This document shows positions 3,610-57,366 of a stretch of DNA of 64,000 nucleotides, piece by piece. The notes under the pieces are model-generated. The model was not told the origin of the DNA. It saw only the letters and a list, made by a program, of their open reading frames with translations, and searched no databases. The stretch comes from Minisyncoccota bacterium (GTDB lineage: Bacteria > Patescibacteriota > Minisyncoccia > Phycocordibacterales > JABMNX01): positions 69,964 through 133,963 of the forward strand of contig JAPHQU010000002.1 of assembly GCA_026195275.1 (NCBI GenBank), in the 5' to 3' direction. How positions within the stretch are numbered: the stretch's first letter is position 1; each line of letters starts with the position of its first letter. Made by a program: the position numbers and the translations under genes.

Positions 3610-4629
3610 TTACTCGGTCGTTACCGTGATAGGGAACTGTTTGATGTTGTTCTCTTCGTTGCGTTCCTTCATGCTTCCGGTTGGGTCTGCATTAATGGTG
3701 ATTGCGCCACCATGAACTGCAAGGTCGATTTGGTTGAATTCAAGTGTGAAGACAATTTTGTCTCCGGGGTTGAGTGCTTGCTGGCTTTCTGAATGGAAAA
3801 TATACATTGGCATAGTTGGAAGCACTGCGTTGAATGTCCACTGGTCTGAAGTCTTGTCGCCAATGTTTTTGATTTCGAAGCGGATTGCCGCTTTCGTGTC
3901 TGTTGCGGTGAGGGTGTCGATTGGAGTGAATGTGCCATCATTCTCAACAATACCGATACCGATGATATGTACCGCGAGATCAGGGAGTCCTGATGGGTTT
4001 GAGATAGTGCCTCCGTTGGTGATCTCGTAGGTCCCTGTGGTTTCCTCTCCCGGAGTGAGTGTATTGCCGCCAGCGGTGTTTCCTCCCGTTGGCGCGCCTA
4101 GACCGCTTTTTGAGATAGTAAGGGTCACTGAGCCGCTCGCTGCGGTATCACCGGATGTGTCCACCGCATTGATGGTTACAGGAACACTCACAAAGTCACT
4201 CCCTTCAAGGAGGGGGATTATAAGGAGCGTGCCTTCGGTGCTTGAGAATGCAAATGGTGTATCACACACGACCTCCTCGTAGATACCGCCGGTGTTTGGA
4301 CTCTGTATCGAGAGTCCGTCACGACACGTAAAGGACGCCGTGTATGCGTCTGATTGTTTATTGCGGTGGCTCCATGAGAGCTCATACACACTGTCTGTTG
4401 GCACGATAGATTCCGGTGTATCGATGGTAATGGTCTGTGCCGGCGCGAAAACCGAAGTAAGAGAAGTGGCGACTGCGGCAAGGGAAGAGAGCACTGACGG
4501 CGCAAGGCGCGCGATCTGAACTGAGCCCCAGAGTCCGACTGAGAGGATGGCGATAAAACCAATAATAGCGAGTGCTTTCACACCGAGCTGCTGTAATTCT
4601 GCTTTTGGAAAATTTTTCATGTGCACCAA
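3610..4629 (-). CDS. Membrane-anchored extracellular protein (N-terminal signal anchor, Thr/Gly-rich, CARDB-like beta-rich domain), function unknown
   Basis: 339-aa ORF with N-terminal TM helix ALAIIGFIAILSVGLWGSV. Composition is typical of a cell-surface protein. It lies next to the sortase gene. Confidence 0.55.
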   Translation of the reverse strand: MVHMKNFPKAELQQLGVKALAIIGFIAILSVGLWGSVQIARLAPSVLSSLAAVATSLTSVFAPAQTITIDTPESIVPTDSVYELSWSHRNKQSDAYTASFTCRDGLSIQSPNTGGIYEEVVCDTPFAFSSTEGTLLIIPLLEGSDFVSVPVTINAVDTSGDTAASGSVTLTISKSGLGAPTGGNTAGGNTLTPGEETTGTYEITNGGTISNPSGLPDLAVHIIGIGIVENDGTFTPIDTLTATDTKAAIRFEIKNIGDKTSDQWTFNAVLPTMPMYIFHSESQQALNPGDKIVFTLEFNQIDLAVHGGAITINADPTGSMKERNEENNIKQFPITVTTE

Positions 4630-4746: not shown

Positions 4747-5391
4747 ATGAAAGACCAAGGAATAAAAGGGCACACAGGTTCTCTCGTTACCGCCATTGTG
4801 GCGGTGCGGTGGCGTTTTCTCTTTCTCTTTGTCTTTATGTTTGGTATGACGCTCTTCTTGCTTTCAATGGTTGGGCTTGTCCCCGAGAGGATCACAGAGC
4901 GAGAGCCTGCAGGCACTGAGGTTGCGTATGCTTCTCGTGAGTACGCGGGGGACCCTAAGCGGATCCTCATCCCTTCAGTCGGAGTGGATGCTAATATTGA
5001 AAATCCACAGAGCCGCGAGATCGAGGCACTTGATCGTGCCCTCAAGGAAGGAGTGGTACGATATCCCGGCACCGGAGTGCTTACCGAAAATGCAAATATT
5101 TTTCTTTTCGGACACTCCAGCTACTTGCCGAGCGTCATCAACAAGAACTATCAGGTATTCAACAATCTACAGAAGCTTGGTGCGGGGGATGAGATCTTTG
5201 TTGATTCGGGGGATATGCGATATGTATACCGCGTCACATCGGTTGTGCTTGATGAAGCGGGAAATGTTGTTGTTGACTTCAGTCGTGGAGAGCGGATGCT
5301 CACACTTGCGACCTGTAACTCTTTTGGAGAGAAAGACGAGCGATACGTTGTCCGCGCAAAGTACGTAGGAAGCTACCTGCTTACGATCTAG
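4747..5391 (+). CDS. Sortase family transpeptidase
   Basis: N-terminal TM anchor followed by sortase-like H (LFGHSSY), LTLATCNSFG (TLxTC) and R (VVRAKYVG) motifs in the canonical His-Cys-Arg order. Confidence 0.8.
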   Translation: MKDQGIKGHTGSLVTAIVAVRWRFLFLFVFMFGMTLFLLSMVGLVPERITEREPAGTEVAYASREYAGDPKRILIPSVGVDANIENPQSREIEALDRALKEGVVRYPGTGVLTENANIFLFGHSSYLPSVINKNYQVFNNLQKLGAGDEIFVDSGDMRYVYRVTSVVLDEAGNVVVDFSRGERMLTLATCNSFGEKDERYVVRAKYVGSYLLTI

Positions 5392-5522: not shown

Positions 5523-6728
5523 ATGCTCAGAAATATCAGTGTTGTCGTAGTCGCTACGTTGGCGATTGCGGCGTGTGCGGTCCCCGTGAGGGTCGTCAAC
5601 ACCGAGCAGGAGTCGGTGCCGACCAAAGAGGTCTCACTACAGGAATCTATTCCTGTGGTCAGGGCTCCTTCTGGACCGGTGAAAGTCCGCCCGAAAGAGT
5701 GGTCTCTTCCCGGTATGACTTGGATTGGCGATGGATTCTCCTGCCCCACATCGGCCGTACAGGGCGAGCGTCTGCGCAAGTGGGCACGCCCCGGCGCACA
5801 CCCATACGCCGGCACTCTCGGCCAGGCAATCGGGCTCTTCCGGGATGTTCCCAAAGAGGTTCGTGCCTCCTGGCAGGAGGACTTCAAGATGAACAAGCTC
5901 ACGACACGCCCGCTTTCTGAAGGCGAGCGTTTCTGCGGTATGTTCTACACCATCGACGGCAAGAAAGGTCCCTACCATAGGGTCTGGCCGAATGTCAGGA
6001 CTGGTGCGTGGGTCAACGAACCAAACGCCAACAACGGCGCTCGGGTCGTTACTGCCACCTATGGCGGCTACGAATGGGATCTTGTGATCCCGGACATCTG
6101 CGACAACGTCTCATACGTTGCTCGTAAGATGCCGACACCAGTCCCGCACAATACGCAGAGCGTCAAGCAGTCGGTATCTCCTATGCCGATACCGCTGGCT
6201 AAGCTGGCAGAAGATCCGTTCTTCATTCGGGTCAACTACTGGGAGTGGGATTCAATCCCTGAAGACCTTCAGAAGAAGATCATGAAGATCGTGGAATATG
6301 AAGGCAACGAGACGTACGCCGAAGAAGACGGCGCCGTCTCAAGGGACTTGTACGATGATTTGGTCGCGTCATGGAAAGAAGGTGGCGCAACCACGGTTAC
6401 CGTCCCCACCTCGGCGTCGATCAGCTATCCGGGCAGCAACGGCGTGGAGAGCATCCTCTCGAAGCAGGGTGACCACGCTAAGTTCTCGGACCTTGTGTAC
6501 TGGGAGAAGTACATCAGTCGTTCGCTTGCGTCAGAGCTCGAGAGTCAGGTTTTACTCTCGAGAGTCTCTGCAGAAGGGTGTACGGTAGTGTATCCCACTG
6601 AAAAGATGGAATACACCATCAGCACCCGACTGAACACGAAACCTAAAGCTCCCGGGGAACTTGCCTTATTGGCAAGGAATCCTAAGGAAGTAGGTGCGAA
6701 CATGAACGTCGTACTGGATTGCCCGTAA
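5523..6728 (+). CDS. Putative secreted lipoprotein, function unknown
   Basis: Signal peptide with a lipobox-like AIAAC. The 401-aa ORF lies in the surface-protein cluster. Confidence 0.55.
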   Translation: MLRNISVVVVATLAIAACAVPVRVVNTEQESVPTKEVSLQESIPVVRAPSGPVKVRPKEWSLPGMTWIGDGFSCPTSAVQGERLRKWARPGAHPYAGTLGQAIGLFRDVPKEVRASWQEDFKMNKLTTRPLSEGERFCGMFYTIDGKKGPYHRVWPNVRTGAWVNEPNANNGARVVTATYGGYEWDLVIPDICDNVSYVARKMPTPVPHNTQSVKQSVSPMPIPLAKLAEDPFFIRVNYWEWDSIPEDLQKKIMKIVEYEGNETYAEEDGAVSRDLYDDLVASWKEGGATTVTVPTSASISYPGSNGVESILSKQGDHAKFSDLVYWEKYISRSLASELESQVLLSRVSAEGCTVVYPTEKMEYTISTRLNTKPKAPGELALLARNPKEVGANMNVVLDCP

Positions 6729-6799
6729 GGGCTACTCAACTTGGTGTGGGAGTAGAGATGCGCTATAGTGCACCCTACCTCCCATACCTTTTTATACTT

Positions 6800-8554
6800 A
6801 TGAAAAATCAACTCACAGAAAAGACATCAACAATGAACACAACGCTTATGCAGGCGATTCTTTTCTGTATTTTTTTACTTTCACTTTTTGCCTTTGCGCT
6901 CAATATCACATTTGAGGGGCATCAGGTACAGGTAGGCCCAACACAGGTACTTGCTTTTGGTAGTGGCGCTGGAGCAGGTGGTGGTGGCGGCGCAGGTGGT
7001 GGTGGCGGCGCAGGTGGTGGTGGCGGCGACTCTGCTGGTGGTAGTGGATTTGGGAGCGGTTCAGGCTCTGGTAACGGAAACTCCTCAGATTCAGGATTTG
7101 GGGGTGGTTCGGGAGCGGGGAATGGTAACCCGGGTGATCCTGGAGATGAGGGAGGTGGTACTCCGTCAAACCCGCCCCAGAATCCACCAACGCCGGATCC
7201 AACCCCGTCCTGTTCACTTTCTGTCGACAAGAGCACACTTACCCTTGGCGGATCTGCGTCACTCTCATGGTCTTCGAGTAATGTATCAAGTGGGTCTATC
7301 GACCAGGGAGTCGGCACTGTTTCAACTTCCGGAAGCACAAATGTTTCGCCGGAAAGCTCGGTGACCTATACCGGCACCTTTACCGGGCAGTATGGCTCTG
7401 CAACATGTTCAGTGTCGGTACAGGTTTCAACAACACCAGACCCGGAAGCACCATCGTGTTCTCTCTCGGTCGGAAAGAGTGTGCTTGCAAAAGGGGAGTC
7501 GACCACACTTTCGTGGACTTCAGTCAATACAATCGAAGGTTCGATTGACCAGAGCATTGGATCAGTTGACACTTCAGGAAGCACGAGTGTTACACCGGAC
7601 AGCAACACAACATACACCGGTACGTTCACCGGGCAAGATGGTTCGGTACAGTGTCGTGCCTCAGTCGAGGTCACAACAACCCCGCCACCAGGATGTACGG
7701 TCAATTGTGGCGGAGGAATCGACCCGCCGACAGTCTCGCTCAACTCACTTAAAGGACCGGGGGAGAACCCACTCGCATTTATTACCCTCAGCCAGATCCC
7801 GTACACCGGATTTGACGCCGGACCAATCGCAACCGCACTCTACTGGCTCGTACTTATACTCTGGAGTGCCTTTCTTGCATACGCAATCATTACCTACAAC
7901 ATCGGGGCACGACTCTTCTCTTCAATCGGCGCAATTCTTGGAGGCGGTCGGACCTCTGCCCCTGCAGAGCGCGCGCAAGCCAACCGGTCTTTCTATGCTC
8001 ATGAAATAGCAGATGACGCGACGGCAGAAGGGGTGCATGGTGACGAGCTCACCCTTGAGATTGATGGTGGTGTGCCACGGATTATCCTGAAGCGGGTGGT
8101 GGCTGAGAAGACCCCCACAGCTTTTCTCAATGAGGGACATGAGCAGCAGAACAACTCGCACCAGACCGCGTATATTAAGACAGATACTACCGACAGACTT
8201 CCTGTAGCTGGCACGCATACAGCAGTGCTTCTCCAGGCGATTGCCCGAGGAGACAGCGCGCGTGCACTTCGTGTGATTCAAGAGCATCGTAAAGAAGGTA
8301 AGGATGTGACCACTACACTTGTCTCGCTTGTGTGTGAGCTCGATCGACTTCACTGTGTCCGTTGTGATGAGAAGACATCTGAGATGGTTGACCCGGCCAC
8401 AGCAGAGCGTTTCCACTCTTGGAGTGCGTACGATATTGAGCAGGCAATTCACATCCTCACCGAAGGGATTGATCGCAACCGCATCTCTCCGGCAACCGGT
8501 GCCAAAGTTGCCATTCTCCGGGTACTTGAATATTCCAGCAACCGTCACAACTAA
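6800..8554 (+). CDS. Large cell-surface protein: signal peptide, Gly/Ser-rich low-complexity region, Pro-rich linker, two tandem ~85-aa Cys-containing Ig-like repeats, IPYTG motif, TM helix, ~190-aa cytoplasmic domain
   Basis: The ORF runs 6719..8554 and the likely start is 6800 (MKNQLTEK) or 6833 (MNTTLMQ). The repeats PSCSLSV[D/G]KS...TYTGTFTGQ.GS..C..SV.V.TTP occur twice. A TM helix IATALYWLVLILWSAFLAYAII follows IPYTGFDAG. Confidence 0.65.
   Translation: MKNQLTEKTSTMNTTLMQAILFCIFLLSLFAFALNITFEGHQVQVGPTQVLAFGSGAGAGGGGGAGGGGGAGGGGGDSAGGSGFGSGSGSGNGNSSDSGFGGGSGAGNGNPGDPGDEGGGTPSNPPQNPPTPDPTPSCSLSVDKSTLTLGGSASLSWSSSNVSSGSIDQGVGTVSTSGSTNVSPESSVTYTGTFTGQYGSATCSVSVQVSTTPDPEAPSCSLSVGKSVLAKGESTTLSWTSVNTIEGSIDQSIGSVDTSGSTSVTPDSNTTYTGTFTGQDGSVQCRASVEVTTTPPPGCTVNCGGGIDPPTVSLNSLKGPGENPLAFITLSQIPYTGFDAGPIATALYWLVLILWSAFLAYAIITYNIGARLFSSIGAILGGGRTSAPAERAQANRSFYAHEIADDATAEGVHGDELTLEIDGGVPRIILKRVVAEKTPTAFLNEGHEQQNNSHQTAYIKTDTTDRLPVAGTHTAVLLQAIARGDSARALRVIQEHRKEGKDVTTTLVSLVCELDRLHCVRCDEKTSEMVDPATAERFHSWSAYDIEQAIHILTEGIDRNRISPATGAKVAILRVLEYSSNRHN
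6974..7027 (+). repeat. Perfect 3 x 18-bp tandem repeat (gcaggtggtggtggcggc) encoding (AGGGGG)3 inside the surface protein gene
   Basis: Counted directly: three identical 18-nt units. Confidence 0.9.
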
Positions 8555-14476: not shown

Positions 14477-14504
14477 TTGCGATTCGTAAGATATCATGTA
14501 TAAT
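14477..14504 (+). promoter_or_regulatory. Putative sigma70-type promoter for rpmF (TTGCGA-16 bp-TATAAT), probably leaderless
   Basis: TTGCGA at 14477-14482 and TATAAT at 14499-14504. The first ATG (14513) is 8 nt downstream of the -10, with no SD. Confidence 0.5.
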
Positions 14505-14839: not shown

Positions 14840-15769
14840 ATGGCAAATAGGCACCTTTCAAGAAGTATTGTTCTTCAAACTCTATTCGAGGTTGATTTTG
14901 ATGATGTGGCAGGAAAAGGTGTGGATATCGATGAGGCGCTCGCTCGAAACACGGACGAATTTGCTCCGGGTTCGAGCGATATTTCGTTTATGAAGCGACT
15001 CCTTGATACTGTGGTCTCAAAACGCAAGGAACTCGACGATATTATTGTAAAAGCAGCACCCGAGTGGCCAATTGAGAAGATATCGGTAGTTGATCGCAAT
15101 GTGCTGAGGATGGGGTTGGCAGAGCTTCTCTTTGCGGATCGCGCAGAAGTGCCGGCGAAAGTTGCGATCAATGAGGCAATCGAACTCGCCAAGACCTTTG
15201 GTGGAGAGAGTAGTGGCCGGTTCGTGAACGGAGTTCTTGGTGCAGTGTATAAAGAGCTTGGCGAGCCGGGCAAACACGAGACCTCAAAGAAGAAAAAGAA
15301 GAAAGAGGTACCGTATGAGGACATGCCAATCGAGCGTCTTGGTGGCGCGGTGGTGTATGCGCGCGAAGGTGAAGAGGTATACCTCGCACTCGTGCATGAC
15401 GTCTTCGGACACTGGACGCTCACCAAAGGGCATGTTGAGGAAGACGAGGAGATCAAGGATGGGATTAAGCGTAGTGTGAAGGAAGAACTCGGTATTGAGG
15501 TATCGACTGAGAAAAAACTCGGCACCAATGAGTATGTCGCGACACATCCAGAGAACGGCAAGGTCCGCAAGCAGGTGATCTACTACCTCGCCAAGGCGCC
15601 GTTTGATGATCTTATGCTTCCTGAGAACAAAGGTGGGTTGGACGACGCGAAGTGGTTCAAACTCTCGAATATCCTTGACCTCAATTTCTACGATGATATC
15701 CTCCCAATAATCACGTCCGCAATCAATTTGCTCGTGAAGAATGATGAACCGAAAGAGGCAGAAGAGTAA
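14840..15769 (+). CDS. nusB: NusB (transcription antitermination) fused in-frame to a C-terminal Nudix hydrolase domain
   Basis: The N-terminal 145 aa is NusB-like (SRSIVLQTLFEVDF...AINEAIELAKTFGGESSGRFVNGVL). A poly-Lys linker (KKKKKK) follows. The C-terminal part has a near-canonical Nudix box, GHVEEDEEIKDGIKRSVKEELGI. Confidence 0.8.
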   Translation: MANRHLSRSIVLQTLFEVDFDDVAGKGVDIDEALARNTDEFAPGSSDISFMKRLLDTVVSKRKELDDIIVKAAPEWPIEKISVVDRNVLRMGLAELLFADRAEVPAKVAINEAIELAKTFGGESSGRFVNGVLGAVYKELGEPGKHETSKKKKKKEVPYEDMPIERLGGAVVYAREGEEVYLALVHDVFGHWTLTKGHVEEDEEIKDGIKRSVKEELGIEVSTEKKLGTNEYVATHPENGKVRKQVIYYLAKAPFDDLMLPENKGGLDDAKWFKLSNILDLNFYDDILPIITSAINLLVKNDEPKEAEE

Positions 15770-15777
15770 TACTGAAT

Positions 15778-16470
15778 ATGGAAAAAGATATACACAAATT
15801 TGAAACGGCACTTGGCGTTTCTTTCAATGACATCGGCTTGCTTAAGCAAGCGTTTATTCACCGTTCATATATCAATGAGCACAAAGAGAGTGGTCTTGAA
15901 CACAACGAGCGACTCGAGTTTCTTGGGGATGCGGTTCTTGAGCTCGTGGTGACTGATTTTCTCTATAAGAAGTACCCCAAGAAGACCGAAGGCGAGCTTA
16001 CTGCGTATCGCGCGGCACTCGTTAATACAGGTTCGCTCTCAGCGGCATCAGATAAGCTTGGAGTGAATGAATACCTCTGTCTCTCAAAAGGAGAGGCGCA
16101 GGACACCGGGCGAGCGCGTCAGTATATTCTCGCAAACACTTTTGAAGCGATTGCGGGCGCGCTTTACCTCGATCAGGGCTACGAAGCGGCGCAGAAGTTT
16201 ATTGACGACAACCTCTTTCATCTCACTGAAGATATCGTCGAGAAGGGTCTCTGGCAAGACGCAAAAAGTCGCTTTCAAGAGCAGGCACAGGAGCACGCTG
16301 GTATTACCCCGCGCTACGAGCTTGTTGAAGAGCGTGGACCAGATCATGATAAGACATTTGTGATCGGTGTTTATCTCGACAAAGCGCAGATTGCGACTGG
16401 TAAAGGGCTCTCAAAACAAGAGGCAGAGCAGGATGCGGCACAAGCAGCACTTGAACTCAAGGGGTGGTAA
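15778..16470 (+). CDS. rnc: Ribonuclease III
   Basis: ERLEFLGDAVLELVV signature plus a C-terminal dsRBD. Confidence 0.9.
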   Translation: MEKDIHKFETALGVSFNDIGLLKQAFIHRSYINEHKESGLEHNERLEFLGDAVLELVVTDFLYKKYPKKTEGELTAYRAALVNTGSLSAASDKLGVNEYLCLSKGEAQDTGRARQYILANTFEAIAGALYLDQGYEAAQKFIDDNLFHLTEDIVEKGLWQDAKSRFQEQAQEHAGITPRYELVEERGPDHDKTFVIGVYLDKAQIATGKGLSKQEAEQDAAQAALELKGW

Positions 16471-16478
16471 TTGTGAGC

Positions 16479-16514
16479 AAAAACCCCGGCGCGCCTTTAG
16501 GCGCGCCGGGGTTT
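16479..16514 (+). terminator. Rho-independent terminator after rnc
   Basis: aaaaccccggcgcgcc-ttta-ggcgcgccggggtttt perfect hairpin with a T-run. Confidence 0.75.
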
Positions 16515-16538
16515 TCTTTGATATAATAGGGCGTATCT

Positions 16539-18755
16539 ATGTACTTGAAATCACTCGAACTCTCCGGATTCAAATCTTTTGCGAAGAAGAGCGAGCTTAC
16601 GTTTGCCTCAGCAATCACCGCTATTGTGGGCCCCAATGGCTCGGGAAAGTCGAACGTCGCCGAAGCGTTCCGTTTTGTGCTCGGCGAGCAGTCGCTTAAG
16701 TCGATGCGTACCAAGCGTGGCGAAGACCTTATCTGGGGTGGCTCACACACCCAGTCGCGCGGGAATCGCGCATCCGCAAGAGTGTCTTTTGACAATACCT
16801 CACGGCTCTTTGATATCGATTTTGACGAAGTGACCATTGAGCGTATTGTGCACCGCGACGGAGTGAATCAGTACCTCATCAACGGAAGCTCCGTGCGACT
16901 CAAGGATGTCGCTGAACTGCTTGCAAGTGCAAATATCGGCTCGTCCGGGCACCATATCATCTCGCAGGGCGAGGCTGATCGGCTTCTCTCGGCGAGTATC
17001 AAAGAGCGTCGCGAGATGATTGAGGATGCGCTCGGGCTCAAGATCTTTCAATACAAGAAAAAGGAGAGCGAGAAGAAGCTTGAGCAGACGGAAGAAAATA
17101 TCAACCAGGTTATGAGTTTGCGTAAGGAGATCGCGCCGCATCTCCGCTTCCTTAAACGACAGGTCGAGAAGATTGAGCGCTCAAAGCAGATGCGCGAAGA
17201 ACTCACCGAGCTTTTGCGCGACTATCTCAGGCGTGAAGAGTTTTATATTACAAGCAAGAAAGCGGATATCGCGGTACGAGCGGCTGAGCCGCGCGAGAAG
17301 CTCGCACGACTCAATGCCGAGCTTGCCGAAGCCCGTGCAACACTGGAGAAGGTTTCAGAAGAAGACGCTCGTGGCAAAGAGGTGCTCGAGGTGGAGCAGA
17401 AGCTCAGGGAGACCCGCAAAGAGCGCGACGAGCTTGCTCGGAGAGTGGGGCGGCTCGAGGGCCAGATCTCATACGCGGAGAAACATGTGCAGCGTACGGC
17501 CGACAGTGTTGTCAAACTGTCTGCAGTAAAGATGCTCGCTGACGATATCGAACGTGAGGTTGCTGATGCAATGACGCTCGATTCGCTTGACCGAGTAAAG
17601 AGTGGGCTTGAGAAGGTTCGCTCGCTTGTCGTCTCATTTTTCAATACACACAAAGAACAAGAAGGAGTCGAAGATGGCCATGGAGATATTGAAGCGCTCC
17701 GCAAAGAAAAAGATGAGCTTGACGGTAAACTCAAGGAAGCAGAAACAAAGGAGGCCGAGCTCAGGGAGACATACAAAAAGCTCCAAGAGGAGCTTGATGA
17801 GAGCAGGGAAGAGGGGCGTGATGCTGAGCGTGCGGTCTTCCGTATTACAACCGAGAAGAACACGGTTGAGGGTACATTGCGTGACCTGGCGCGTGACGAA
17901 GAGGTCCTCAAGCAGCAGGAAGCAGAGTTTAATCGTGATGTGGAAGAAGGGGCAGTACTCGGCGGAAGGCTTGTCCTTGGCTATGCGGATATTACGCTTA
18001 ACGAAGACGCGGCACGCGCTGAGGCGCGGAGCTCTCAAGAGGAGCGGAAGCGGGAGGTTGAGCGCTTGAAGATTCGTGTTGAGGAAGCCGGGGGCGGCTC
18101 AAGCGACGAGGTGCTCAAGGAGTACCAAGAGGCGAGCGAGCGCGACGAGTTTCTTGAGCGCGAGGTGCGCGACCTCGAGACATCGAGTGAGTCACTCAAG
18201 CGCGTCATTGCCGACCTTGATGAGCAGTTGGCGGTGAAGTTTCGAGAGGGGATTGTTAAAATCAACAAGGAGTTCCAGCACTTCTTTGAACTTCTTTTTG
18301 ATGGCGGCTCGGCGAAGCTTACGGTGCTTGAACAGAAGAAGCGTGTGAAGAACAATATGCTTCTTACGGGAGATTTGGGAGAGGAAGAAGCCGAGATAGA
18401 AGCCGGTATTGATATTGGTGTCTCGCTTCCACGCAAGAAAGTGAAGGGACTCCAGATGCTCTCCGGTGGTGAGCGTGCACTTACCTCAATCGCGCTTCTC
18501 TTTGCAATGAGCCAGGTGAACCCACCGCCATTTTTGATACTCGATGAGACCGAAGCGGCGCTCGATGAGGCTAACTCGCGTAAGTATGGCGAGATGATTA
18601 AAGAGCTTGCGAAGAAGACGCAGCTTATCCTTATTACCCACAATCGTGAGACGATGTCAGTCGCCGGTATCCTCTACGGGATCACTATGGGGTCAGACGG
18701 CATCTCAAAACTTCTCTCGGTCAAATTCGACGAAGCAGTGCAGGTAGCGAAATAG
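16539..18755 (+). CDS. smc: SMC-like chromosome segregation ATPase, short form lacking recognisable hinge domain
   Basis: N-terminus LELSGFKSFAKK...GPNGSGKSN (Walker A) and QGEAD. The C-terminal part has LSGGERALTSIALLFA (ABC signature) and ILDETEAALD (Walker B). It is only 738 aa, with a continuous coiled-coil-like middle and no Gly-rich hinge. Confidence 0.8.
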   Translation: MYLKSLELSGFKSFAKKSELTFASAITAIVGPNGSGKSNVAEAFRFVLGEQSLKSMRTKRGEDLIWGGSHTQSRGNRASARVSFDNTSRLFDIDFDEVTIERIVHRDGVNQYLINGSSVRLKDVAELLASANIGSSGHHIISQGEADRLLSASIKERREMIEDALGLKIFQYKKKESEKKLEQTEENINQVMSLRKEIAPHLRFLKRQVEKIERSKQMREELTELLRDYLRREEFYITSKKADIAVRAAEPREKLARLNAELAEARATLEKVSEEDARGKEVLEVEQKLRETRKERDELARRVGRLEGQISYAEKHVQRTADSVVKLSAVKMLADDIEREVADAMTLDSLDRVKSGLEKVRSLVVSFFNTHKEQEGVEDGHGDIEALRKEKDELDGKLKEAETKEAELRETYKKLQEELDESREEGRDAERAVFRITTEKNTVEGTLRDLARDEEVLKQQEAEFNRDVEEGAVLGGRLVLGYADITLNEDAARAEARSSQEERKREVERLKIRVEEAGGGSSDEVLKEYQEASERDEFLEREVRDLETSSESLKRVIADLDEQLAVKFREGIVKINKEFQHFFELLFDGGSAKLTVLEQKKRVKNNMLLTGDLGEEEAEIEAGIDIGVSLPRKKVKGLQMLSGGERALTSIALLFAMSQVNPPPFLILDETEAALDEANSRKYGEMIKELAKKTQLILITHNRETMSVAGILYGITMGSDGISKLLSVKFDEAVQVAK

Positions 18756-40595: not shown

Positions 40596-41045
40596 GTGTT
40601 ATACTCTGCCGTATCTATGGCTCCAAGAATAGCAGAAAAGGATACGTTTAAGGTTGTTCGTGCTCGTAAGGGTGCAGGGCTTGGTCTGGTGGCACTCGTG
40701 CCGTTTAAGAAAGAGGACTTTGTAATCGAGTATACCGGGAACCTCATCCCTACCGAAGAAGCAGACGAGAAAGGTGGGAAGTACCTCTTTGACATAAACT
40801 CAAAATGGACGATTGATGGATCGCCGCGCGAGAACCTCGCGCGCTACATCAACCACTCCTGTAAGCCGAACTGCGAAGCGGAAATCTCTGGAAAGCGCGT
40901 AAAGATATATGCGATCAAGAATATAAAAGCGGGCGAGGAGCTCACCTACGATTATGGCGAAGAGTACTTCGATGAGTTTATTAAGCCACATGGTTGCAAA
41001 TGCAATCACTGTGTGAGCAAGAAGACAAAAGCGAAGAAAAGATAG
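40596..41045 (+). CDS. SET-domain protein (putative lysine methyltransferase)
   Basis: YINHSCKPNC (NHSCxPN), ELTYDYG and a post-SET Cys cluster CKCNHC. Confidence 0.8.
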   Translation: MLYSAVSMAPRIAEKDTFKVVRARKGAGLGLVALVPFKKEDFVIEYTGNLIPTEEADEKGGKYLFDINSKWTIDGSPRENLARYINHSCKPNCEAEISGKRVKIYAIKNIKAGEELTYDYGEEYFDEFIKPHGCKCNHCVSKKTKAKKR

Positions 41046-42222: not shown

Positions 42223-43035
42223 TCATATGAACCGATTTGGTACTCGAAGCTCTTCAACAAGAAGCATATCACTTTGGTGGTTTGCAAACTGCGGACTTAT
42301 GATCCTTCCGGCCAGACGCGTTCCTTTTGGGGTAACACACAGTAACGCCCCAAGAAGGTCGAGCAAGCGGTGTGTCGCGATCTCCTCAAGTTTCTCTTGA
42401 GACGATATGCCTTCATTCTGTTCAAACCACACGAACTGGTCTTTGCGACCGAAGATCTGACTGAGTACCTTAAGTACTGGTCTGCCGTACGGTCTTGCAT
42501 GTGATAATGCAGCAATGTCGATTTGATCGAGATCTCCTTCAAGGATGCTTTCCCCGATACTTTCGTAATTGACCACGATCCTGTAGACAAGGGTCCTGGT
42601 TTGATTGGTCTCTTCGCTCGGATGGATCTCCAACGATCGCCCGCTGCAGACCGGTATCTCGATCATCGTGGTGGGCGTGACGCAGGAGAACACACCACTG
42701 CGTTTCAATTGCGGCCCGATCATTTTGTGAAAGAGAACCGCACAGCCGTCATAGGGAAGTCGGGAAGCGCTGATGCGCACCCCGTCAACACCTGCTGCGT
42801 AAAGATACCCTAGCAGATGCTCAGGCACATAGAGCTCCGCCTTTTTGTGTGACAGTTTGAGGCAGTGTAGGTATGGATGCGCAGTGATGCACACCTTATC
42901 AAGGGGTACATCCGTGCCGTCCGCATTCCAGTAGATCCCCGGAGCGCCAATCGGGCTCAAGACGACTCGCGCCGTTTTCCCGAAAGCATCACGCCCGTTT
43001 ATCTCCACCTCCTTTAAGAGTGTGTTGCGGATCAT
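42223..43035 (-). CDS. lpxC: UDP-3-O-acyl-N-acetylglucosamine deacetylase (LpxC) family zinc deacetylase
   Basis: By-eye alignment to E. coli LpxC. The N-terminus matches: [26 protein letters not shown] against [44 protein letters not shown] corresponds to TVEHLNAALAGLGIDNIVI (E78/H79). [10 protein letters not shown] corresponds to HKMLDAIGDL (H238/D242). NH near the C-terminus corresponds to H265. Confidence 0.6.
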   Translation of the reverse strand: [270 protein letters not shown]

Positions 43036-43372
43036 CGAAGACTCCTTTCTTTGTTCTTGTGATATTGATATCTCACCAATGTATAGCACACCGAGCAGTT
43101 GTTGTCATGCCCTGCGCGATATGCGTGCTCGGAGACTTGCCTATGACCTTGGGTTACATACAAAATTCAAAATTGAGTAAAAATGGTGTAAAAATAAAAA
43201 GAAGAGACCACCCCCAATTGACGAGGGTGGTTTGAAGCATCATAAGGTCTCTTGAGGATGTTAGTCGTCGTGGTCGGTGCCGACTTCTAGAGAAAGGATA
43301 CTTTATACACACGCTCATTATGTACTCGTGCCTCTGGTTTGTTAATATGAGATGTATAACCGAAGATTCAAT

Positions 43373-48344: not shown

Positions 48345-49910
48345 ATGAAAAAAGCCACAAAATCAACCAAAAAGAAAACAGAAAGTGCTGGACGATTTGA
48401 GGCACAACTTTTCAAAGCGGCAGACAAACTCCGAAAGAACATAGACGCGGCTGAGTACAAACACGTTGTACTCGGTCTTATTTTTCTGAAGTTCATATCA
48501 GACGCATTTGATGTGCACTACCAGAAACTTGCCTCGGGTAAGGGTGAATATGAGGGTGCCAACCCAGAGGATCAAGACGAATACAAAGCAGAAAACGTAT
48601 TTTGGGTACCGCCAGAAGCGCGGTGGGCACACCTTCATTCACGCGCAAAGTTGCCGAGTATCGGTAAGGATTTGGACGCGGCAATGGAGGCGATTGAGCG
48701 AGCCAACCCGACACTCAAGGGTATCCTCCCGAAAGAGTACGCAAAACCAAACTTGGACAAGGTAGCACTCGGTGGTTTGGTAGACCTTATTGCAGACGTT
48801 GCACTCGGCGAGGAAAGCGAAAAATCAAAAGACCTTATTGGACGTGTGTATGAGTACTTTCTCGGCGAGTTCGCTTCGCTTGAAGGCAAGAAGGGCGGGC
48901 AATTCTACACTCCTAGAAGCATTGTTGAACTTATGGTGCAAATGATAGAGCCAATGACGGGACGTGTGTACGACCCTGCGTGTGGTTCGGGTGGAATGTT
49001 TGTGATGAGCGAGAAGTTTGTGCTCGCACATCGCGGGCGTTTGGAAGACATTTCTATTTACGGACAAGAGAGCAACCACACCACCTACCGCCTTTGCCGT
49101 ATGAACCTCGCGCTTCGCGGAATAGATGGCTCGCAAGTGAAATGGAATAGCGAAGGGTCATTTCTCAAAGACGCACACCCTGACCTCAAAGCGGATTACA
49201 TTTTGGCAAATCCGCCTTTCAACCAAAACGACTGGGGCTGGGACATTCTCAGAAACGACGCTCGTTGGAAGTACGGTTTGCCGCCAGAAGGCAACGCAAA
49301 CTATGCGTGGCTTCAACATATGATCCACCACCTTTCTCCAAAAGGTGTAATGGCAACGGTACTTTCAAATGGTTCGCTTTCCTCCAACCAAGGTGGCGAA
49401 GGAGAACTGCGAAAGAAACTTGTGGAGGAGGATATGGTGGACTGTATCGTTGCGCTTCCAAACCAACTTTTCTACAACACAGGCATTCCTGCTTGTTTGT
49501 GGTTTATCTCACGTAAGCGCATTGGCAACGGCGACAGGAAACGCACAGGAGAAGTGCTATTTATAGACGCGTCGCAAATGGGGGCGCTGGTAGACCGAAC
49601 GCACAGAGAGTTTACCGAGGAGGACATCAAAAAGATTGCGGGCACGTATCACGAGTGGCGACAGAAAAACAACAAGTACAAGGACATCAAGGGCTTCTGC
49701 AAATCATCATCACTCGCGGAGATACAAAAGAACGGCTACGTGCTCACGGCAGGGCGCTATGTGGGTATTGCAGATGGCGCGAAAGACAGCGAGCCGTTTG
49801 AGGAGAAAATGACGCGGCTCACCAGTACCCTCAAGGAGCAAATGGAGCAGGAGCAGACCTTGAACGAGGAAATAAAGAAGCAACTGAAAAAAGTTGGATT
49901 TGAACTATGA
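48345..49910 (+). CDS. hsdM: Type I restriction-modification system methyltransferase subunit
   Basis: N-terminal LFKAADKLRKNIDAAEYKHVVLGLIFLKFISD, motif I DPACGSGGM and motif IV NPPFN. Confidence 0.92.
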   Translation: MKKATKSTKKKTESAGRFEAQLFKAADKLRKNIDAAEYKHVVLGLIFLKFISDAFDVHYQKLASGKGEYEGANPEDQDEYKAENVFWVPPEARWAHLHSRAKLPSIGKDLDAAMEAIERANPTLKGILPKEYAKPNLDKVALGGLVDLIADVALGEESEKSKDLIGRVYEYFLGEFASLEGKKGGQFYTPRSIVELMVQMIEPMTGRVYDPACGSGGMFVMSEKFVLAHRGRLEDISIYGQESNHTTYRLCRMNLALRGIDGSQVKWNSEGSFLKDAHPDLKADYILANPPFNQNDWGWDILRNDARWKYGLPPEGNANYAWLQHMIHHLSPKGVMATVLSNGSLSSNQGGEGELRKKLVEEDMVDCIVALPNQLFYNTGIPACLWFISRKRIGNGDRKRTGEVLFIDASQMGALVDRTHREFTEEDIKKIAGTYHEWRQKNNKYKDIKGFCKSSSLAEIQKNGYVLTAGRYVGIADGAKDSEPFEEKMTRLTSTLKEQMEQEQTLNEEIKKQLKKVGFEL

Positions 49911-50938
49911 GCGAAAAAATAACAACAGAAAATGTATTTGAGGTAGATGTTCCAGCATTGGCACTGGACAGCCGCTTTGGCAGTTTGGTATTTGAAAACG
50001 CCAACAAAAAACTCGGTAAGGCGCAAGCGTTTCTGAAAGAAGTGTACGATCTTGGCTATCAAGAACTTCTCAACGAAAGTGGTATAAATCAGGTTGGAAA
50101 TCTAACCAACAAACTGACGGAGCATTTGGAATGGCTTCGCAACTTTGATATTGGTACAGTTGCAAACGCAAAGCAGGAGCACGACAACTTTGAAAGTCGT
50201 ATTGACGGCTTCTATAACGATATTTACGAGCAGATACTGATGAGAACGCTCCCGTTCCTCCGAGAGGAGCGCCGTCGCGAAAACCCTGACCAAAAACAGT
50301 TGGATGAGGAGGTAAAGAAAGCAGTACAGGTACGCACTGAGCTTGAGGATGAACTAAAAGCAATACGCGAGGAAACTCAAAAAATCCGCACTGCAAATAA
50401 ACAAGTTGGTTCCGCTAAGGGTCAGAGGGCGGCAGTACAAATGGCGGCACACTTTGATGATGAAGTAGAACGCTATGCAACTCTCTCAAAGTATTGGCTT
50501 TGGGGCGTTGTAGGCGGATATGTCGCTATTGTTGCAGTTCTTGTTTGGCTCGGGTTTGTTACCGCCTCATATGTACATCAAATCGTCTCTTTGCCCGACA
50601 CCGTGGACACGAGTGGTATCTGGAGCGCTGTGATCTCAAAACTCGTTATCTTGGCGGCGCTATGGTATGGCTTATCGTTCGTTATCAAAAACTACAACGT
50701 GAACTCTCATTTGGCGGCAGTAAACCGACACCGCGCCGCAGTGGCACGAACTCTGGAGGACTTCATAGCGGTAGAACAACAGCAGGAAAATCCGCGCTTG
50801 TCGGAAGTGCTACAGCACGCTTCCGAAGCAATGTTCAAGAATGTGCCGATTGGTTTCGTCTCTAAGACAGAACGCGAACAAAGCAATCCCGTGCTTCAGA
50901 TAGTGAATGACCTGATCGGGATAAAGAACAACACATAG
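49907..50938 (+). CDS. Embedded gene X1: coiled-coil N-terminal domain plus 2-TM membrane protein, function unknown
   Basis: 343 aa. The start overlaps the hsdM stop (ATGA). TM helices are WLWGVVGGYVAIVAVLVWLGFV and SAVISKLVILAALWYGLSFVI. No motif recognised. Confidence 0.6.
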   Translation: MSEKITTENVFEVDVPALALDSRFGSLVFENANKKLGKAQAFLKEVYDLGYQELLNESGINQVGNLTNKLTEHLEWLRNFDIGTVANAKQEHDNFESRIDGFYNDIYEQILMRTLPFLREERRRENPDQKQLDEEVKKAVQVRTELEDELKAIREETQKIRTANKQVGSAKGQRAAVQMAAHFDDEVERYATLSKYWLWGVVGGYVAIVAVLVWLGFVTASYVHQIVSLPDTVDTSGIWSAVISKLVILAALWYGLSFVIKNYNVNSHLAAVNRHRAAVARTLEDFIAVEQQQENPRLSEVLQHASEAMFKNVPIGFVSKTEREQSNPVLQIVNDLIGIKNNT

Positions 50939-50941
50939 TAT

Positions 50942-51535
50942 ATGGAAATCGTTTATATTCTCACCAACCAAGCAATGCCCGACTACGTGAAGGTTGGGCG
51001 CACCAAAGACCTCCAGCAAAGGTTGAAAAGTTTGTATCGCACACCCGTGCCACTTCCTTTTGAGGTGTTCTATGCGTGCACTGTTGAGAACTCTATGGAA
51101 GTAGAGGCGTGGCTGTTTGAGATTTTTGACGATAGGCGGGTGAGCAAAGAGCGAGAGTTTTTTGAGATAGCGCCAGAGCGCGTTGCCGCGGCATTGCGTG
51201 CACGAGCGGTGCAGGAGGTAACCCCGAAGCAGACGTACACAGAGAACAAAGAGGACGAGGTGGCACTGGAAAAGGCACGCTCAAAACGCGACAAGTTCAA
51301 CTTCGCAATGGTGGGTATTCCTGCTGGTGCTGAACTTACCTTCAGTAGAGACGAGAATATAAGGGCGCGGGTAGTAGACAACCACAACATTGAATACAAC
51401 GGCAAGGTAACGAGTTTGTCTACCTCGGCACAGGAAATACTTGGCTACAACTATGGAGTGGCGGGCACGTTGTATTGGTCGTATGAAGGCGAAACTCTCC
51501 ACGCGCGGCGCGTGCGAATGGAGGAAGGAGAATGA
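50942..51535 (+). CDS. Embedded gene X2: T5orf172 (GIY-YIG-like) + DUF4357-like domain protein
   Basis: N-terminus IVYILTNQAMPDYVKVGRT...REFFE is T5orf172-like. The C-terminal part KFNFAMVGIPAGAELTF...SLSTSAQEILGY...WSYEG is DUF4357-like. This family is commonly found inside type I R-M loci. Confidence 0.65.
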   Translation: MEIVYILTNQAMPDYVKVGRTKDLQQRLKSLYRTPVPLPFEVFYACTVENSMEVEAWLFEIFDDRRVSKEREFFEIAPERVAAALRARAVQEVTPKQTYTENKEDEVALEKARSKRDKFNFAMVGIPAGAELTFSRDENIRARVVDNHNIEYNGKVTSLSTSAQEILGYNYGVAGTLYWSYEGETLHARRVRMEEGE

Positions 51536-52797
51536 ATATGAGCACGACGACACAATGGAAAAAAGGATTTTTATACGAGATCGCGACGGTAGTCGGGGGC
51601 TATGCATTCCGAGGTGAGGATTTTGGAAGTGAAGGAACTGCCGTCATAAAAATAAAAGACATTCAGCCGCCGTATGTTGATATTCAAAATGCCGAAAGGA
51701 TAGATCAACAGAAGTACAATCAACAAAAGATTGAGAAGTTCAAACTTTCAAAGGGAGATTGTTTAGTCGCTATGACTGGAGCGACGATAGGAAAGGTTGG
51801 AAAGATTTCGTATGACGAGGTTTCTTATCTGAACCAACGAGTAGCAAAGGTGGCGGAAAAGAGAGGTGTGGCGGATAAGAACTTTGTTTACTACGCGGTT
51901 TTAGGTAGTGATTTCCAGCGATACGTGAACACAACCTCATCTGGTAGCAGTGCTCAGCAAAACATTAGCGCCGATGATATAGGGCGTTTTCCTATTGTTT
52001 ATCCCATAGACATAAAAGATCAATGTACAATCGCGCAAGTTCTCATCAGTTTAGACAAAAAGATTGAGTTGCTACGGAAGCAAAACGAGACGCTGGAGGA
52101 AATGGCGAGGGCGATTTTCAACGCGTGGTTTGTGGAGTTCAACTTTCCAGATAAGGACGGTAAGCCATACAAAGCGTCTGGCGGGAAAATGGTAGACAGT
52201 GAATTTGGCGAAATCCCAGAGGAATGGCGCGTCGGTACTCTTGCCGAACTTATAGATCAGTTGAGTGAACGCATTGGCTCTGATGAGCAGTCAAAGTACA
52301 CGGTTATGTCTGCAGTAAACACAGGGCAACTCGTGCCTTCAAGTGAGTATTTTACTAAACAGGTTTTTAGTAAGAGCATTTCAAAATACATCAAAATCCA
52401 CCAAGGAGATTTTGCATACAATCCAGCACGTATCAACATCGGTTCTATTGGGAGATTGCGAGAACTTATCTTGGGAGCTGTTAGTCCTGTATATGTCGCG
52501 TTTCGCGCAAAAGAAGGCGCGGGAGCGTTTGTTGATTTCTTGATCCAGACGGCAAAAATGAAAAAACATATTGAACTCTATGCTAACGGGTCAGTGCGGC
52601 AAACACTTGACTATGACGGTTTCGGAGCATTTTCTTTTGCAGTTCCAACGGAAAATATCCTGAAAGAGTTTGACAAGATCACTGCTTCTCTACGGAATAT
52701 TTTTGAACGGAAGGAAGCCCAGATTGAGAACCTGCGAACTGTTCGGGATTTACTACTGCCAAAACTAATGAGCGGAGAGGTTCGCGTAAATACGTAA
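51532..52797 (+). CDS. hsdS: Type I restriction-modification system specificity subunit
   Basis: Two target-recognition halves separated by the conserved central helix region LLRKQNETLEEMARAIFNAWFVEF. C-terminal LRTVRDLLLPKLMSGEV. Start overlaps the X2 stop. Confidence 0.85.
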   Translation: MNMSTTTQWKKGFLYEIATVVGGYAFRGEDFGSEGTAVIKIKDIQPPYVDIQNAERIDQQKYNQQKIEKFKLSKGDCLVAMTGATIGKVGKISYDEVSYLNQRVAKVAEKRGVADKNFVYYAVLGSDFQRYVNTTSSGSSAQQNISADDIGRFPIVYPIDIKDQCTIAQVLISLDKKIELLRKQNETLEEMARAIFNAWFVEFNFPDKDGKPYKASGGKMVDSEFGEIPEEWRVGTLAELIDQLSERIGSDEQSKYTVMSAVNTGQLVPSSEYFTKQVFSKSISKYIKIHQGDFAYNPARINIGSIGRLRELILGAVSPVYVAFRAKEGAGAFVDFLIQTAKMKKHIELYANGSVRQTLDYDGFGAFSFAVPTENILKEFDKITASLRNIFERKEAQIENLRTVRDLLLPKLMSGEVRVNT

Positions 52798-52801
52798 ACA
52801 T

Positions 52802-53458
52802 ATGGAAAGCACAGTAGAAAAAATCACCGATACAGTATCCGACGCATTCAGAAGCATAGCCGAGATTGCAAAGGAGCGAATATTTACGCCAATGTATTTC
52901 TACTTCCTTGGTGCGTGGCTCATTACCAACTGGAAGTTTGTGTACACATTCTTTTTTGCTGATGAAAAACTGATACTTGAACACACTGGAATGTTGAAAG
53001 TTGAGTATCTGACGCAAATCTATCCTCACGACTGGACGGCGGTATTTCCGTTATTTGTTATACCGTTCGGGCTCGCGTATTTGGCAGTTTGGTGGTTCTC
53101 TGTCGTTTCCGAGAGGTTTTATAAAAAACACGAGGAGCACCAAATGAATAAGCGTGTGATCAAGCGCGAAGTTGAGTACCGCGAGAAGGTGGCATATTTC
53201 AAATCAGAGCGTGAAGTACGCGAGCAACAACTTGATCCGCAGGTGAAGTATGAGGAGAACAGGGACTACAACGAGCAAATAGACGAGAGCAATCCAGAGG
53301 TGGAAGTGAATGGAGTGCCTATGTTGCCAAGCGAAGTTTTGTATAAAACGGATTACCTTGCATATAAAACAGGGCTAGACGAATATACAGCAGAACTCGC
53401 ACAGAAGGGCGAGGATTTGGCAGTTCAGGCAGAAATAGACCGCCGACGCGGAAAATGA
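52802..53458 (+). CDS. Embedded gene X3: 2-TM membrane protein with charged C-terminal tail, function unknown
   Basis: 218 aa. Helices are [22 protein letters not shown] and [22 protein letters not shown]. Its stop overlaps the hsdR start (ATGA). Confidence 0.55.
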
Positions 53459-56400: not shown

Positions 56401-56613
56401 GAGACACTTCGCGATCTTGCGCGAGTGCTGGTAGACAGGGTACGGGCGAGTGCCACGGTGGACTGGACGATACGCGAGAACGTAAAAGCAAAGTTGCGCG
56501 TCTTGGTAAAACGTACGCTCGCCAAGTACGGCTATCCACCAGACAAGCAGGCAATCGCTACGGAAACCGTGCTCAAACAGGCGGAACTTTTCGCTGATGA
56601 TTGGGCGAAATAA
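53455..56613 (+). CDS. hsdR: Type I restriction enzyme endonuclease/helicase subunit
   Basis: N-terminal nuclease domain, SF2 motifs ([16 protein letters not shown]) and a length of 1052 aa. Confidence 0.92.
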
Positions 56614-56619
56614 AGTTTT

Positions 56620-57366
56620 ATGAAAAAGAGAGAAAACAAAAAGGCGCTTCTACAAGCGCAGGAGAAAATGTATTTGTATCTGACTTCTCTTGCGTCAGAT
56701 CAGTCATTTCTCGCACGAGTAACAGAAATACGGGAAAGGTATGGAATACCCGAAGGTGGTTTTGAAAGTGATTTGAAGGACGAGTTTGAGTTTATAAACT
56801 CACTCCCCAAGGGAAACGAAGCGGATTTCCAAAAAGAAATATACGACCTTGCAGAGAGTTTCAATGCCTCTCTTGCGTGGCTCACGAATATTCGCGATTA
56901 CGTACTTTACAATGACTTCTTTTTTACGAAAGTTTCCCCTTTGGTTGAAATGGTTGATGTGCTCGGTCTTACAGACGAGATAGTAGAAATGGACGTAGAT
57001 TTGTATGAGGAATACGAAGTGGACGAAAACGCAGTCGTGCGGCGGGTACTCAACAATCTGACTAACAGTTATCCGCTTGCAATTTTTGTTTCGCCTTATG
57101 CAACAGGTCGCGACATAATAGATTTTATAAAAAAGAACAAAACTAGCATTGAAACTCTCCAGAACAAACACTGTGATAGTGATGTGCGGATTGGCAAGGT
57201 GAGAAAAAGAAAAGCGAACGTACAGGAGAGGGATTTGTTCATTTGTAACAACAAACACCTTTCTGCCAAGGTGCTAATGAGTAAAGTGAACGAGAAGTTT
57301 GGTACACAACTGGACTACGATTACATAAACAAAATCATTGCCAAAAAGTGCCCGCGAGGAAAATAA
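56620..57366 (+). CDS. Embedded/trailing gene X4: hypothetical acidic protein, function unknown
   Basis: 248-aa ORF starting 7 bp after the hsdR stop. No motif recognised. Confidence 0.5.
   Translation: MKKRENKKALLQAQEKMYLYLTSLASDQSFLARVTEIRERYGIPEGGFESDLKDEFEFINSLPKGNEADFQKEIYDLAESFNASLAWLTNIRDYVLYNDFFFTKVSPLVEMVDVLGLTDEIVEMDVDLYEEYEVDENAVVRRVLNNLTNSYPLAIFVSPYATGRDIIDFIKKNKTSIETLQNKHCDSDVRIGKVRKRKANVQERDLFICNNKHLSAKVLMSKVNEKFGTQLDYDYINKIIAKKCPRGK

Follow-up and report, generated by a model that had tools for sequence, protein, structure and literature searches.

A NusB protein tethered to a Nudix-fold domain is encoded by a single gene, here termed nusB::nudix, in a 64,000-nucleotide (nt) stretch of contig JAPHQU010000002.1 from a Minisyncoccota bacterium (assembly GCA_026195275.1, positions 69,964 to 133,963), the whole of which is referred to as the window. 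The gene is an uninterrupted ATG-to-TAA open reading frame (ORF) of 309 amino acids (aa) plus stop at 14840..15769 on the forward strand (+), and its product has an exact protein match in NCBI (P0001), annotated as 'transcription antitermination factor NusB [Candidatus Pacebacteria bacterium]'. Comparisons across relatives indicate that nusB::nudix is the normal nusB gene of Parcubacteria/Paceibacteria and an ancient single-gene fusion, the reality of which we consider virtually certain. The alignments further indicate that the 'RE' glutamate of the Nudix motif, essential in NUDT2 and RppH, varies freely in the family and is absent from the window protein.

Within the rRNA antitermination and chaperone complex, NusB is a core factor that otherwise has a single domain. 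In the window protein, an all-helical NusB domain was assigned to aa 1-140 (14840..15259, +) by Pfam, TIGR01951, AlphaFold2 (AF2) modeling, Foldseek and a family profile. Pfam PF01029 (NusB) matched aa 7-138 with an E-value (E) of 3.1e-32 (112 bits vs. a cutoff of 23.1), and the NCBIfam equivalog TIGR01951 (nusB) reached 119.1 bits vs. a cutoff of 88.35. In the AF2 models, this half forms seven helices with predicted local distance difference test (pLDDT) values mostly above 90, and Foldseek paired it with Aquifex NusB 3r2d_B, the NusB chain of the NusB-NusE-RNA complex, at a template modeling (TM) score of 0.87, a root-mean-square deviation of 1.9 Å and 31% identity. The family profile matched the solved NusB proteins of T. 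maritima (1tzt, E 3.8e-30), Aquifex (1e-26) and E. coli (about 1e-24). By equivalog score, profile and fold, the N-terminal half is a complete NusB; the solved chains that it matched are 139-156 aa long, whereas the window protein carries an extra 170 aa, comprising the linker and the Nudix domain. An initial annotation of the window had proposed a complete NusB joined in frame to a Nudix domain, which Pfam and TIGR01951 confirmed for this ORF. Conservation is also higher in the NusB half, with a mean pairwise identity of 0.56 vs. 0.45 in the Nudix half, and no second NusB was found among the ORFs of at least 100 aa within the window. Since it is annotated as such, scores above the equivalog threshold and is more conserved than its partner, the NusB half is probably the organism's own NusB.

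The C-terminal half is a Nudix-fold domain of the clade of diadenosine tetraphosphate (Ap4A) and hexaphosphate (Ap6A) hydrolases, assigned to aa 164-300 (15329..15739, +) by Pfam, PDB sequence searches, the family profile and Foldseek. Pfam PF00293 (NUDIX) matched aa 170-282 with E 3.1e-13 (50.3 bits vs. a cutoff of 21.1), and the single-sequence matches of this half in the PDB were CT771 (1.6e-6), Ndx1, NUDT2 and the C. elegans Ap4A hydrolase. When the family profile was employed, the only Nudix chains matched were those of diadenosine polyphosphate (ApnA) hydrolases, with E from 7e-12 to 1e-8; these were Chlamydia CT771 (7e-12), the Aquifex Ap4A hydrolase 3i7u (1.6e-11), the Ap4A hydrolase 1kt9 of C. 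elegans, the Thermus Ap6A hydrolase Ndx1 (1vc8) and human NUDT2. In line with these results, Foldseek placed 3i7u closest (TM score 0.85-0.89), followed by 1vc8 (Ndx1), 4mpo (CT771) and 9cxx, with M. tuberculosis Rv2985 and the NrtR Nudix domain also among the top matches and a probability of 1.00 to many Nudix structures. The NCBIfam RppH equivalogs, on the other hand, remained far below cutoff (NF001936, 19.4 vs. 118 bits; NF001937, 13.2 vs. 139; NF001938, 12.6 vs. 116), so that by curated models the window protein is not an RppH. We conclude that the Nudix half very probably belongs to the Ap4A/Ap6A-hydrolase clade, close to RppH; the domain would descend from free-standing hydrolases of this type.

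Between the two domains lies a flexible linker, aa 141-163, GEPGKHETSKKKKKKEVPYEDMP (15260..15328, +), identified by its low pLDDT in the AF2 models. Two models were obtained, from 25 and 147 aligned sequences, with mean pLDDT values of 82 and 87, respectively; in both, the two domains were confident (above 90), while aa 143-155 of the linker fell below 50. The deeper alignment raised pLDDT but not the predicted TM score (pTM), which was 0.49-0.50 in both cases, and a fixed interdomain interface was rejected on the grounds that pTM was 0.49 even with 147 sequences. The models thus depict two well-folded domains on a disordered tether with no predicted fixed orientation. The poly-Lys linker noted in the initial annotation is indeed present, as a Lys6 run (S149-KKKKKK-E156, codons aag aag aaa aag aag aaa at 15287-15304), but as a local feature that the family at large does not share: across 238 fused homologues, linker length ranged from 9 to 42 aa (median 24), varying by whole codons, with a median net charge of +1. 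Given this charge and variable length, the linker was discarded as a general RNA-binding element.

At the start of the Nudix domain, Met162-Pro163 (Met codon 15323-15325) is invariant among 25 close homologues and resembles the N-terminus (M-P/K-x-E...) of free-standing relatives; in the family, position 162 is Met in 156 of 238 sequences. Because it matches those N-termini, Met162 is probably a relic of an ancestral start codon. An internal translation start at Met162 was disfavored, as the GAGG motifs, 14 nt and 1 nt from the ATG, are poorly spaced and the Met is not family-wide.

The distribution of the architecture was determined by scanning one genome per species, which gave at least 569 matching stretches, of which 80 loci were kept. 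NusB and Nudix were found in one ORF in 79 of these 80 species-representative loci, the 80th running off its contig end. The loci bear the names Kaiser-, Nomura-, Zambryski-, Vogel-, Ryan- and Niyogibacteria, Paceibacterota, Parcubacteria and Minisyncoccia. Similarly, both Pfam domains were present in all 120 best hits of at least 8000 homologues, all of 297-335 aa, and in 119 of the 120 best hits of a second protein search started from the highly divergent member P0254. Relatives thus carry the fusion and not separate genes, a point that had been raised at the outset. An exhaustive search by means of the Nudix half on its own returned 155 clusters at 50% identity (E<=1e-10); 60 of the 150 best matched both the NusB and the Nudix profiles, some as partial sequences, and most of the others were fragments. 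With respect to occurrence outside Parcubacteria, the cluster look-ups and the second protein search gave only Pacebacteria, Paceibacterota, Parcubacteria and Patescibacteria names. Many third-party annotation metagenome-assembled genomes are titled "Candidatus Saccharibacteria", which appears to be a generic label.

Several apparent split-gene relatives were also inspected. Both P0135 and P0128 begin at the edge of a contig, the latter with rnc behind it, and were rejected as fragments of fusions; P0178 was rejected because the gene upstream of it is not NusB. A genuine stand-alone relative of the Nudix domain with a canonical box is P0190 (L084, 3001-3453). Its neighborhood is phage- or mobile-element-like, with an integrase, a Rep_O-like gene and a DNA methylase. 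P0243 and P0250, which have a canonical box and no NusB half, lie in unrelated metabolic neighborhoods. Among the relatives examined, none had adjacent but separate nusB and nudix genes, and no re-split of the fusion was seen in any of the 79 evaluable species. One further protein, P0145 (142 aa), appears chimeric: its N-terminal half is like a generic MutT-type Nudix, and its C-terminal half (GGLDDARWF...LDLNFYEDMLPII) hardly differs from the NusB-fused family. Either recombination or misassembly could account for it.

That the fusion had not been described before, as the initial annotation supposed, was borne out insofar as no description was found in the titles and abstracts of the literature on NusB with Nudix, on NusB in the candidate phyla radiation (CPR), or on Nudix in Parcubacteria/Patescibacteria or in antitermination. 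It is not new to databases, however, which hold thousands of entries with both Pfam domains, annotated simply as NusB.

The Nudix box was read from the sequence at aa 197-219, GHVEEDEEIKDGIKRSVKEELGI (15428..15496, +), and pairs with the NUDT2 box without gaps. Against the motif GX5EX7REUXEEXGU, the window protein has G197, E203, R211, S212, E215, E216 and G218. The box had been called near-perfect; it stands where it was quoted, but it departs from the motif at position 16, where Ser212 (codon agt, 15473..15475, +) replaces the 'RE' Glu of canonical enzymes. In the ungapped alignment, S212 lies opposite E58 of human NUDT2, a numbering confirmed by the PDB "E58A" entries (LRATQEE vs. LRETQEE in the wild type). 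NUDT2 dephosphorylates 5'-triphosphorylated RNA (ppp-RNA), and its E58A variant is inactive on ppp-RNA and ppp-dinucleotides (PMC8616924). S212 also corresponds to E53 of E. coli RppH, whose motif spans residues 38-60 and whose E53A variant is the standard inactive mutant (PMC6061791).

We then followed position 212 through the family, counting a box as canonical when E203, R211, E212, E215 and E216 were all present. Glu occupied position 212 in 49% of the 79 species loci (full canonical box in 33 of 79), in 24% of 38 representatives of 50%-identity clusters (6 of 38), in 34% of the 120 closest homologues (30 of 120) and in 45% of all 356 fused sequences (132 of 356, 37%). A canonical box is found, for instance, in the L004 protein from Kaiserbacteria (REIKEE). 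Substitutes at position 212 include Lys, Val, Ile, Ala, Gly and Ser. Retention was 92-100% for E216 and about 70-97% for E203, R211 and E215, with E203 and R211 also lost in some lineages (L016, L017, L024, L028 and L064; example, GKIPEGVDPSDGTIAKVKEEIGL). Among 19 short relatives (134-178 aa) without the NusB half, for four of which the genomic context was examined, REUxEE was kept in 18. On a simple neighbor-joining (NJ) tree of 238 fused proteins, with samples that overlap phylogenetically, the minimum numbers of state changes were 39 at position 212 and 42 at 215, 22 at 203, 17 at 211 and 5 at 216, and a single change each at W192 and K196.

Conservation, which measures constraint and not activity, was further ranked over the 137 positions of the Nudix domain in a subset of 117 diverse sequences. 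The top ranks were taken by W192, K196, Y284, T193, W272, D187, G169 and Y232; E216 was 12th, E203, R211 and E215 were about 40th, and position 212 was 91st, the least conserved residue of the box. The best-conserved residues fall within segments common to ApnA hydrolases, namely the W-T-x-x-K-G preceding the box, E216, Y232 and K244-x3-Y248, which are putative ligand-pocket positions in the light of ApnA hydrolase structures.

With Ser212, the window protein falls outside the complete-box criterion for a competent Nudix hydrolase, and for the same reason we lean slightly towards its hydrolysis being impaired, that is, towards a predicted poor or inactive hydrolase. The proposal of an RppH-like or Ap4A-type hydrolase therefore stands as regards the clade, assigned by profile and fold; activity in the window protein is doubtful in view of Ser212 and of the sub-cutoff RppH scores, while it is plausible in some lineages. 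Loss of the catalytic residues from orthologs, named by the initial annotation as evidence against such an enzyme, applies in part, as the frequencies of Glu212 and of the canonical box in the 356 sequences indicate.

The genomic context of nusB::nudix was also examined. Its upstream neighbor is rpmF, encoding ribosomal protein L32 (14513..14794, +; Pfam Ribosomal_L32p, E 6e-16), and its downstream neighbor is rnc, encoding RNase III (15778..16470, +; Pfam Ribonucleas_3_3 and dsrm), with 8 nt between the stop codon of nusB::nudix and the rnc start. Most of the 80 loci have rpmF 5' of the fusion, as do the divergent loci L085 and L087, and rnc lies directly 3' in nearly all loci with sufficient flank, likewise in divergent loci. 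The gene order in the window is thrS(-), dnaE(-), rnhB, rpmF, nusB::nudix, rnc, a short smc, rnr(-), rpsP, khpA and trmD, after which come rpoB, rpoC, dnaG and rpoD. The core rpmF - nusB::nudix - rnc - smc is preserved in nearly all 80 loci, and the same core order surrounds the fusions of L085, L086 and L087, in which identity to the Nudix half of the window protein falls to about 30%. A consensus scan gave TTGCGA-16-TATAAT (10/12; 14477..14504, +) as the best promoter-like site 5' of rpmF, a match that carries no evidence of function, and a strong terminator-like hairpin, with 12 G-C among its 16 pairs and a T-run behind it, directly after rnc (16480..16515, +). The promoter-like site before rpmF and the terminator-like hairpin after rnc suggest that rpmF, nusB::nudix and rnc, encoding L32, NusB::Nudix and RNase III, form one three-gene transcription unit.

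L32 (14513-14794, +) is 93 aa long; its Pfam domain covers only aa 6-55, beyond which the protein continues as a charged C-terminal tail rich in Lys and Glu, KAEKKAVKAEARQREMGEATPEREGDTKTPEESSK. The SMC-like gene that follows rnc (16539-18755, +) encodes 738 aa, compared to 696 aa in the divergent locus L085 (5624-7714), while bacterial SMC proteins are typically of about 1200 aa; the Pfam SMC_N match spans both ends of the window protein (aa 2-723), and the coiled coil and hinge appear strongly shortened in this lineage.

The explanation that we favor, and hold only tentatively, is a composite protein in which a working NusB carries a tethered nucleotide-polyphosphate or RNA 5'-end binding module whose hydrolysis is optional. 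The NusB half would work as NusB ordinarily does, as a partner of S10 in binding boxA RNA within the rRNA antitermination complex, and the Nudix half would be kept mainly as a binder of a Mg-polyphosphate-nucleotide ligand. The binding role is suggested by the strong constraint on E216 and on the putative pocket residues W192, T193, K196, Y232, W272 and Y284, and the optional nature of hydrolysis by the free replacement of the Glu that NUDT2 and RppH cannot do without. Hydrolysis would persist in certain lineages and be weakened or lost in others, that of the window protein among them; the module would hold or sense its ligand, and the canonical-box lineages would convert it. In the most speculative step, a module on NusB bound to boxA of a nascent leader transcript would reach the triphosphate or NpnN cap at the 5' end of this transcript, an idea that arises because NusB sits on boxA in the rRNA leader, rnc is always next and the clade can act on RNA 5' phosphates; by this analogy, action of the Nudix domain at the RNA 5' end is conceivable but rather improbable. 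A free ApnA signal would be the alternative ligand, by analogy with NrtR-type Nudix sensors. In either case, ligand sensing or conversion might be coordinated with leader processing by the co-encoded RNase III. Stated in its strongest form, as a NusB with a built-in Nudix sensor that is effectively a pseudoenzyme in about half of the lineages and reads ApnA or the 5' ppp/Np4N-cap status of the transcript, the explanation is unlikely.

Several observations weigh against the composite explanation. The canonical boxes (about 37-45%) and the individual retention of E203, R211, E215 and E216 in about 80-95% of sequences argue that selection for catalysis persists in many lineages, and may extend to all of them should position 212 be dispensable in this subfamily. 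The connection of the Nudix domain to RNA 5' ends, rRNA leaders and boxA is drawn by analogy. Further, the linker is not consistently basic and AF2 predicts no interface, which would fit two unrelated functions on one chain equally well, and the sequence samples are phylogenetically non-independent on a tree built by simple NJ.

The first of these points leads to the best-surviving alternative, which we nonetheless judge to be on the unlikely side, namely that the Nudix domain is a fully active pyrophosphohydrolase, acting on ppp-RNA or Np4N caps, on Ap4A or on an alarmone, that NusB brings to transcription complexes, position 212 being non-essential in the subfamily. The clade consists of active ApnA hydrolases, of which NUDT2 removes RNA 5' phosphates; the four box residues that are largely retained in the family are all present in the window protein, and every box residue is kept in the canonical fraction of the family after deep divergence. 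Against this, the replaced Glu is the very residue whose Ala mutants abolish NUDT2 and RppH activity, and position 212 flips at least 39 times, to residues as different as Lys, Val, Ile, Ala and Gly as well as Ser. E203 and R211 have also disappeared from the five lineages listed above, and the NCBIfam RppH models score 13-19 bits vs. cutoffs of 116-139.

Less likely still would be an uncoupled fusion, in which, in streamlined genomes, the stop codon between nusB and a neighboring housekeeping ApnA hydrolase gene was lost and the two domains kept independent jobs. The flexible, variable linker and the pTM of 0.49-0.50, with no interface predicted, are as expected from such an event, and so is the finding that the closest NusB-less relatives are ordinary small Nudix proteins, with P0243 and P0250 in unrelated contexts. 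Nevertheless, the fusion has re-split in none of 79 evaluable species, the apparent stand-alone close homologues proved to be contig-edge fragments where contigs were checked, and a relative with adjacent, separate nusB and nudix genes was not found. In addition, a housekeeping hydrolase should keep its catalytic Glu as the short relatives do, whereas the fused copies lose it repeatedly.

A structural or protein-interaction role of the Nudix fold within the antitermination complex, to which nucleotide binding would be irrelevant, is very unlikely. In such a role, the domain would resemble SuhB, a moonlighting enzyme fold in the E. coli rRNA transcription antitermination complex (rrnTAC). Erosion of the catalytic residues alongside conservation of the fold and of many surface residues would be in keeping with this role, but the best-conserved residues fall in the ApnA-hydrolase segments taken as the pocket, which points to ligand binding and not to a new protein interface. 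Lastly, a sequencing or assembly artefact, in which a frameshift in the A-rich linker joined two genes, has a negligible probability, in agreement with the initial annotation: the A-rich Lys run (15287-15304) is the sole point in its favor, and it is opposed by the finding of one uninterrupted ORF in 79 of 80 genomes assembled independently, as well as in metagenome proteins numbering in the hundreds, with linkers varying in whole codons.

The composite protein can be compared to several known systems. The ApnA hydrolases NUDT2, C. elegans Ap4A hydrolase, CT771, Aquifex aq_158 and Ndx1 have H-W-T-x-x-K-G-H-x-E-x-x-E and VRK-x-V-x-Y-x-LA in common with its C-terminal half; they are, however, free-standing with an intact REUXEE, whereas here the domain is NusB-fused and position 16 is Ser. 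RppH is of a related Nudix clade and offers a functional analogy, as it acts on RNA 5'-terminal phosphates and so does NUDT2 (PMC8616924), but the window protein is without the equivalent of its catalytic E53 and below the RppH equivalog cutoffs. NrtR and Bacteroides AraR set a precedent for a Nudix fold that senses a ligand while joined to a regulator that binds nucleic acids; 3gz8, the Nudix domain of NrtR, is a top-10 Foldseek match and AraR 5bs6 a weak sequence match of the window protein. Their Nudix boxes are often degenerate. They differ in having a DNA-binding winged helix as partner and ADP-ribose or arabinose as ligands, in place of an RNA-binding NusB and an ApnA-clade Nudix domain.

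To our knowledge, RsmB/Sun, a 16S rRNA 5-methylcytosine (m5C) methyltransferase with an N-terminal NusB-like domain, is the only well-known protein in which an NusB-type RNA-binding domain is fused to a catalytic domain acting on rRNA. Its NusB-like domain is a paralogue and not the cell's NusB, though, and its partner is a methyltransferase and not a Nudix domain; the RsmB models matched only the NusB-like part of the window protein and below threshold (53.5 bits vs. a cutoff of 319 for NF011494), and a Pfam/NCBIfam scan of the protein revealed no methyltransferase domain. CFIm25/NUDT21 (PF13869) has a Nudix fold without hydrolase activity and binds RNA and Ap4A. With a Pfam NUDIX_2 match that is weak and below threshold (E 0.037), it serves as an analogy only, being a eukaryotic 3'-end processing factor.

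Some other features of the window were recorded. A Type I restriction-modification island at 48345-59662 comprises hsdM (48345-49910), hsdS (51532-52797) and hsdR (53455-56613), interrupted by a T5orf172/GIY-YIG-like gene (50942-51535) and three Pfam-unmatched ORFs (49907-50938, 52802-53458 and 56620-57366); these genes are followed by a large serine recombinase (57920-59662), an NYN-domain gene and a tRNA (60357-60429, -). The region looks like a mobile defense island integrated near a tRNA. At 42223-43089 (-), a weak, full-length Pfam match to LpxC (UDP-3-O-acyl-GlcNAc deacetylase; E 2.8e-7) lies slightly above cutoff. A CPR bacterium is expected to be without lipopolysaccharide, so that LpxC would be unexpected, and the gene may encode a different deacetylase. 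A small SET-domain (protein lysine methyltransferase-like) gene is found at 40596-41045 (+), and another just after smc in L085 (7711-8118). Two long ORFs of 401 and 611 aa with no Pfam match (5523-6728 and 6719-8554, +) lie downstream of a sortase (4747-5391), which follows an opposite-strand CARDB-domain protein (3610-4629); they may encode sortase-dependent surface proteins.

Taken together, the architecture appears genuine, widespread and unstudied, with a function that we infer from sequence. In hundreds of species, NusB is tethered to a Nudix domain of the ApnA-hydrolase/RppH type, always beside RNase III. The label "NusB" alone hides this second domain, and automatic inference of an active hydrolase is unsafe for the window protein. 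With intact and eroded catalytic boxes on one scaffold, the family is a natural series for asking when a Nudix enzyme turns into a binding module, and the architecture raises a possible coupling of the nascent rRNA 5' end, or of ApnA signaling, to antitermination or processing. If the sensor reading were true, it would constitute a direct physical link between RNA 5'-end chemistry or an alarmone and antitermination, of a kind not described so far, and rRNA antitermination and leader processing by RNase III would be conditional on that signal in these bacteria.

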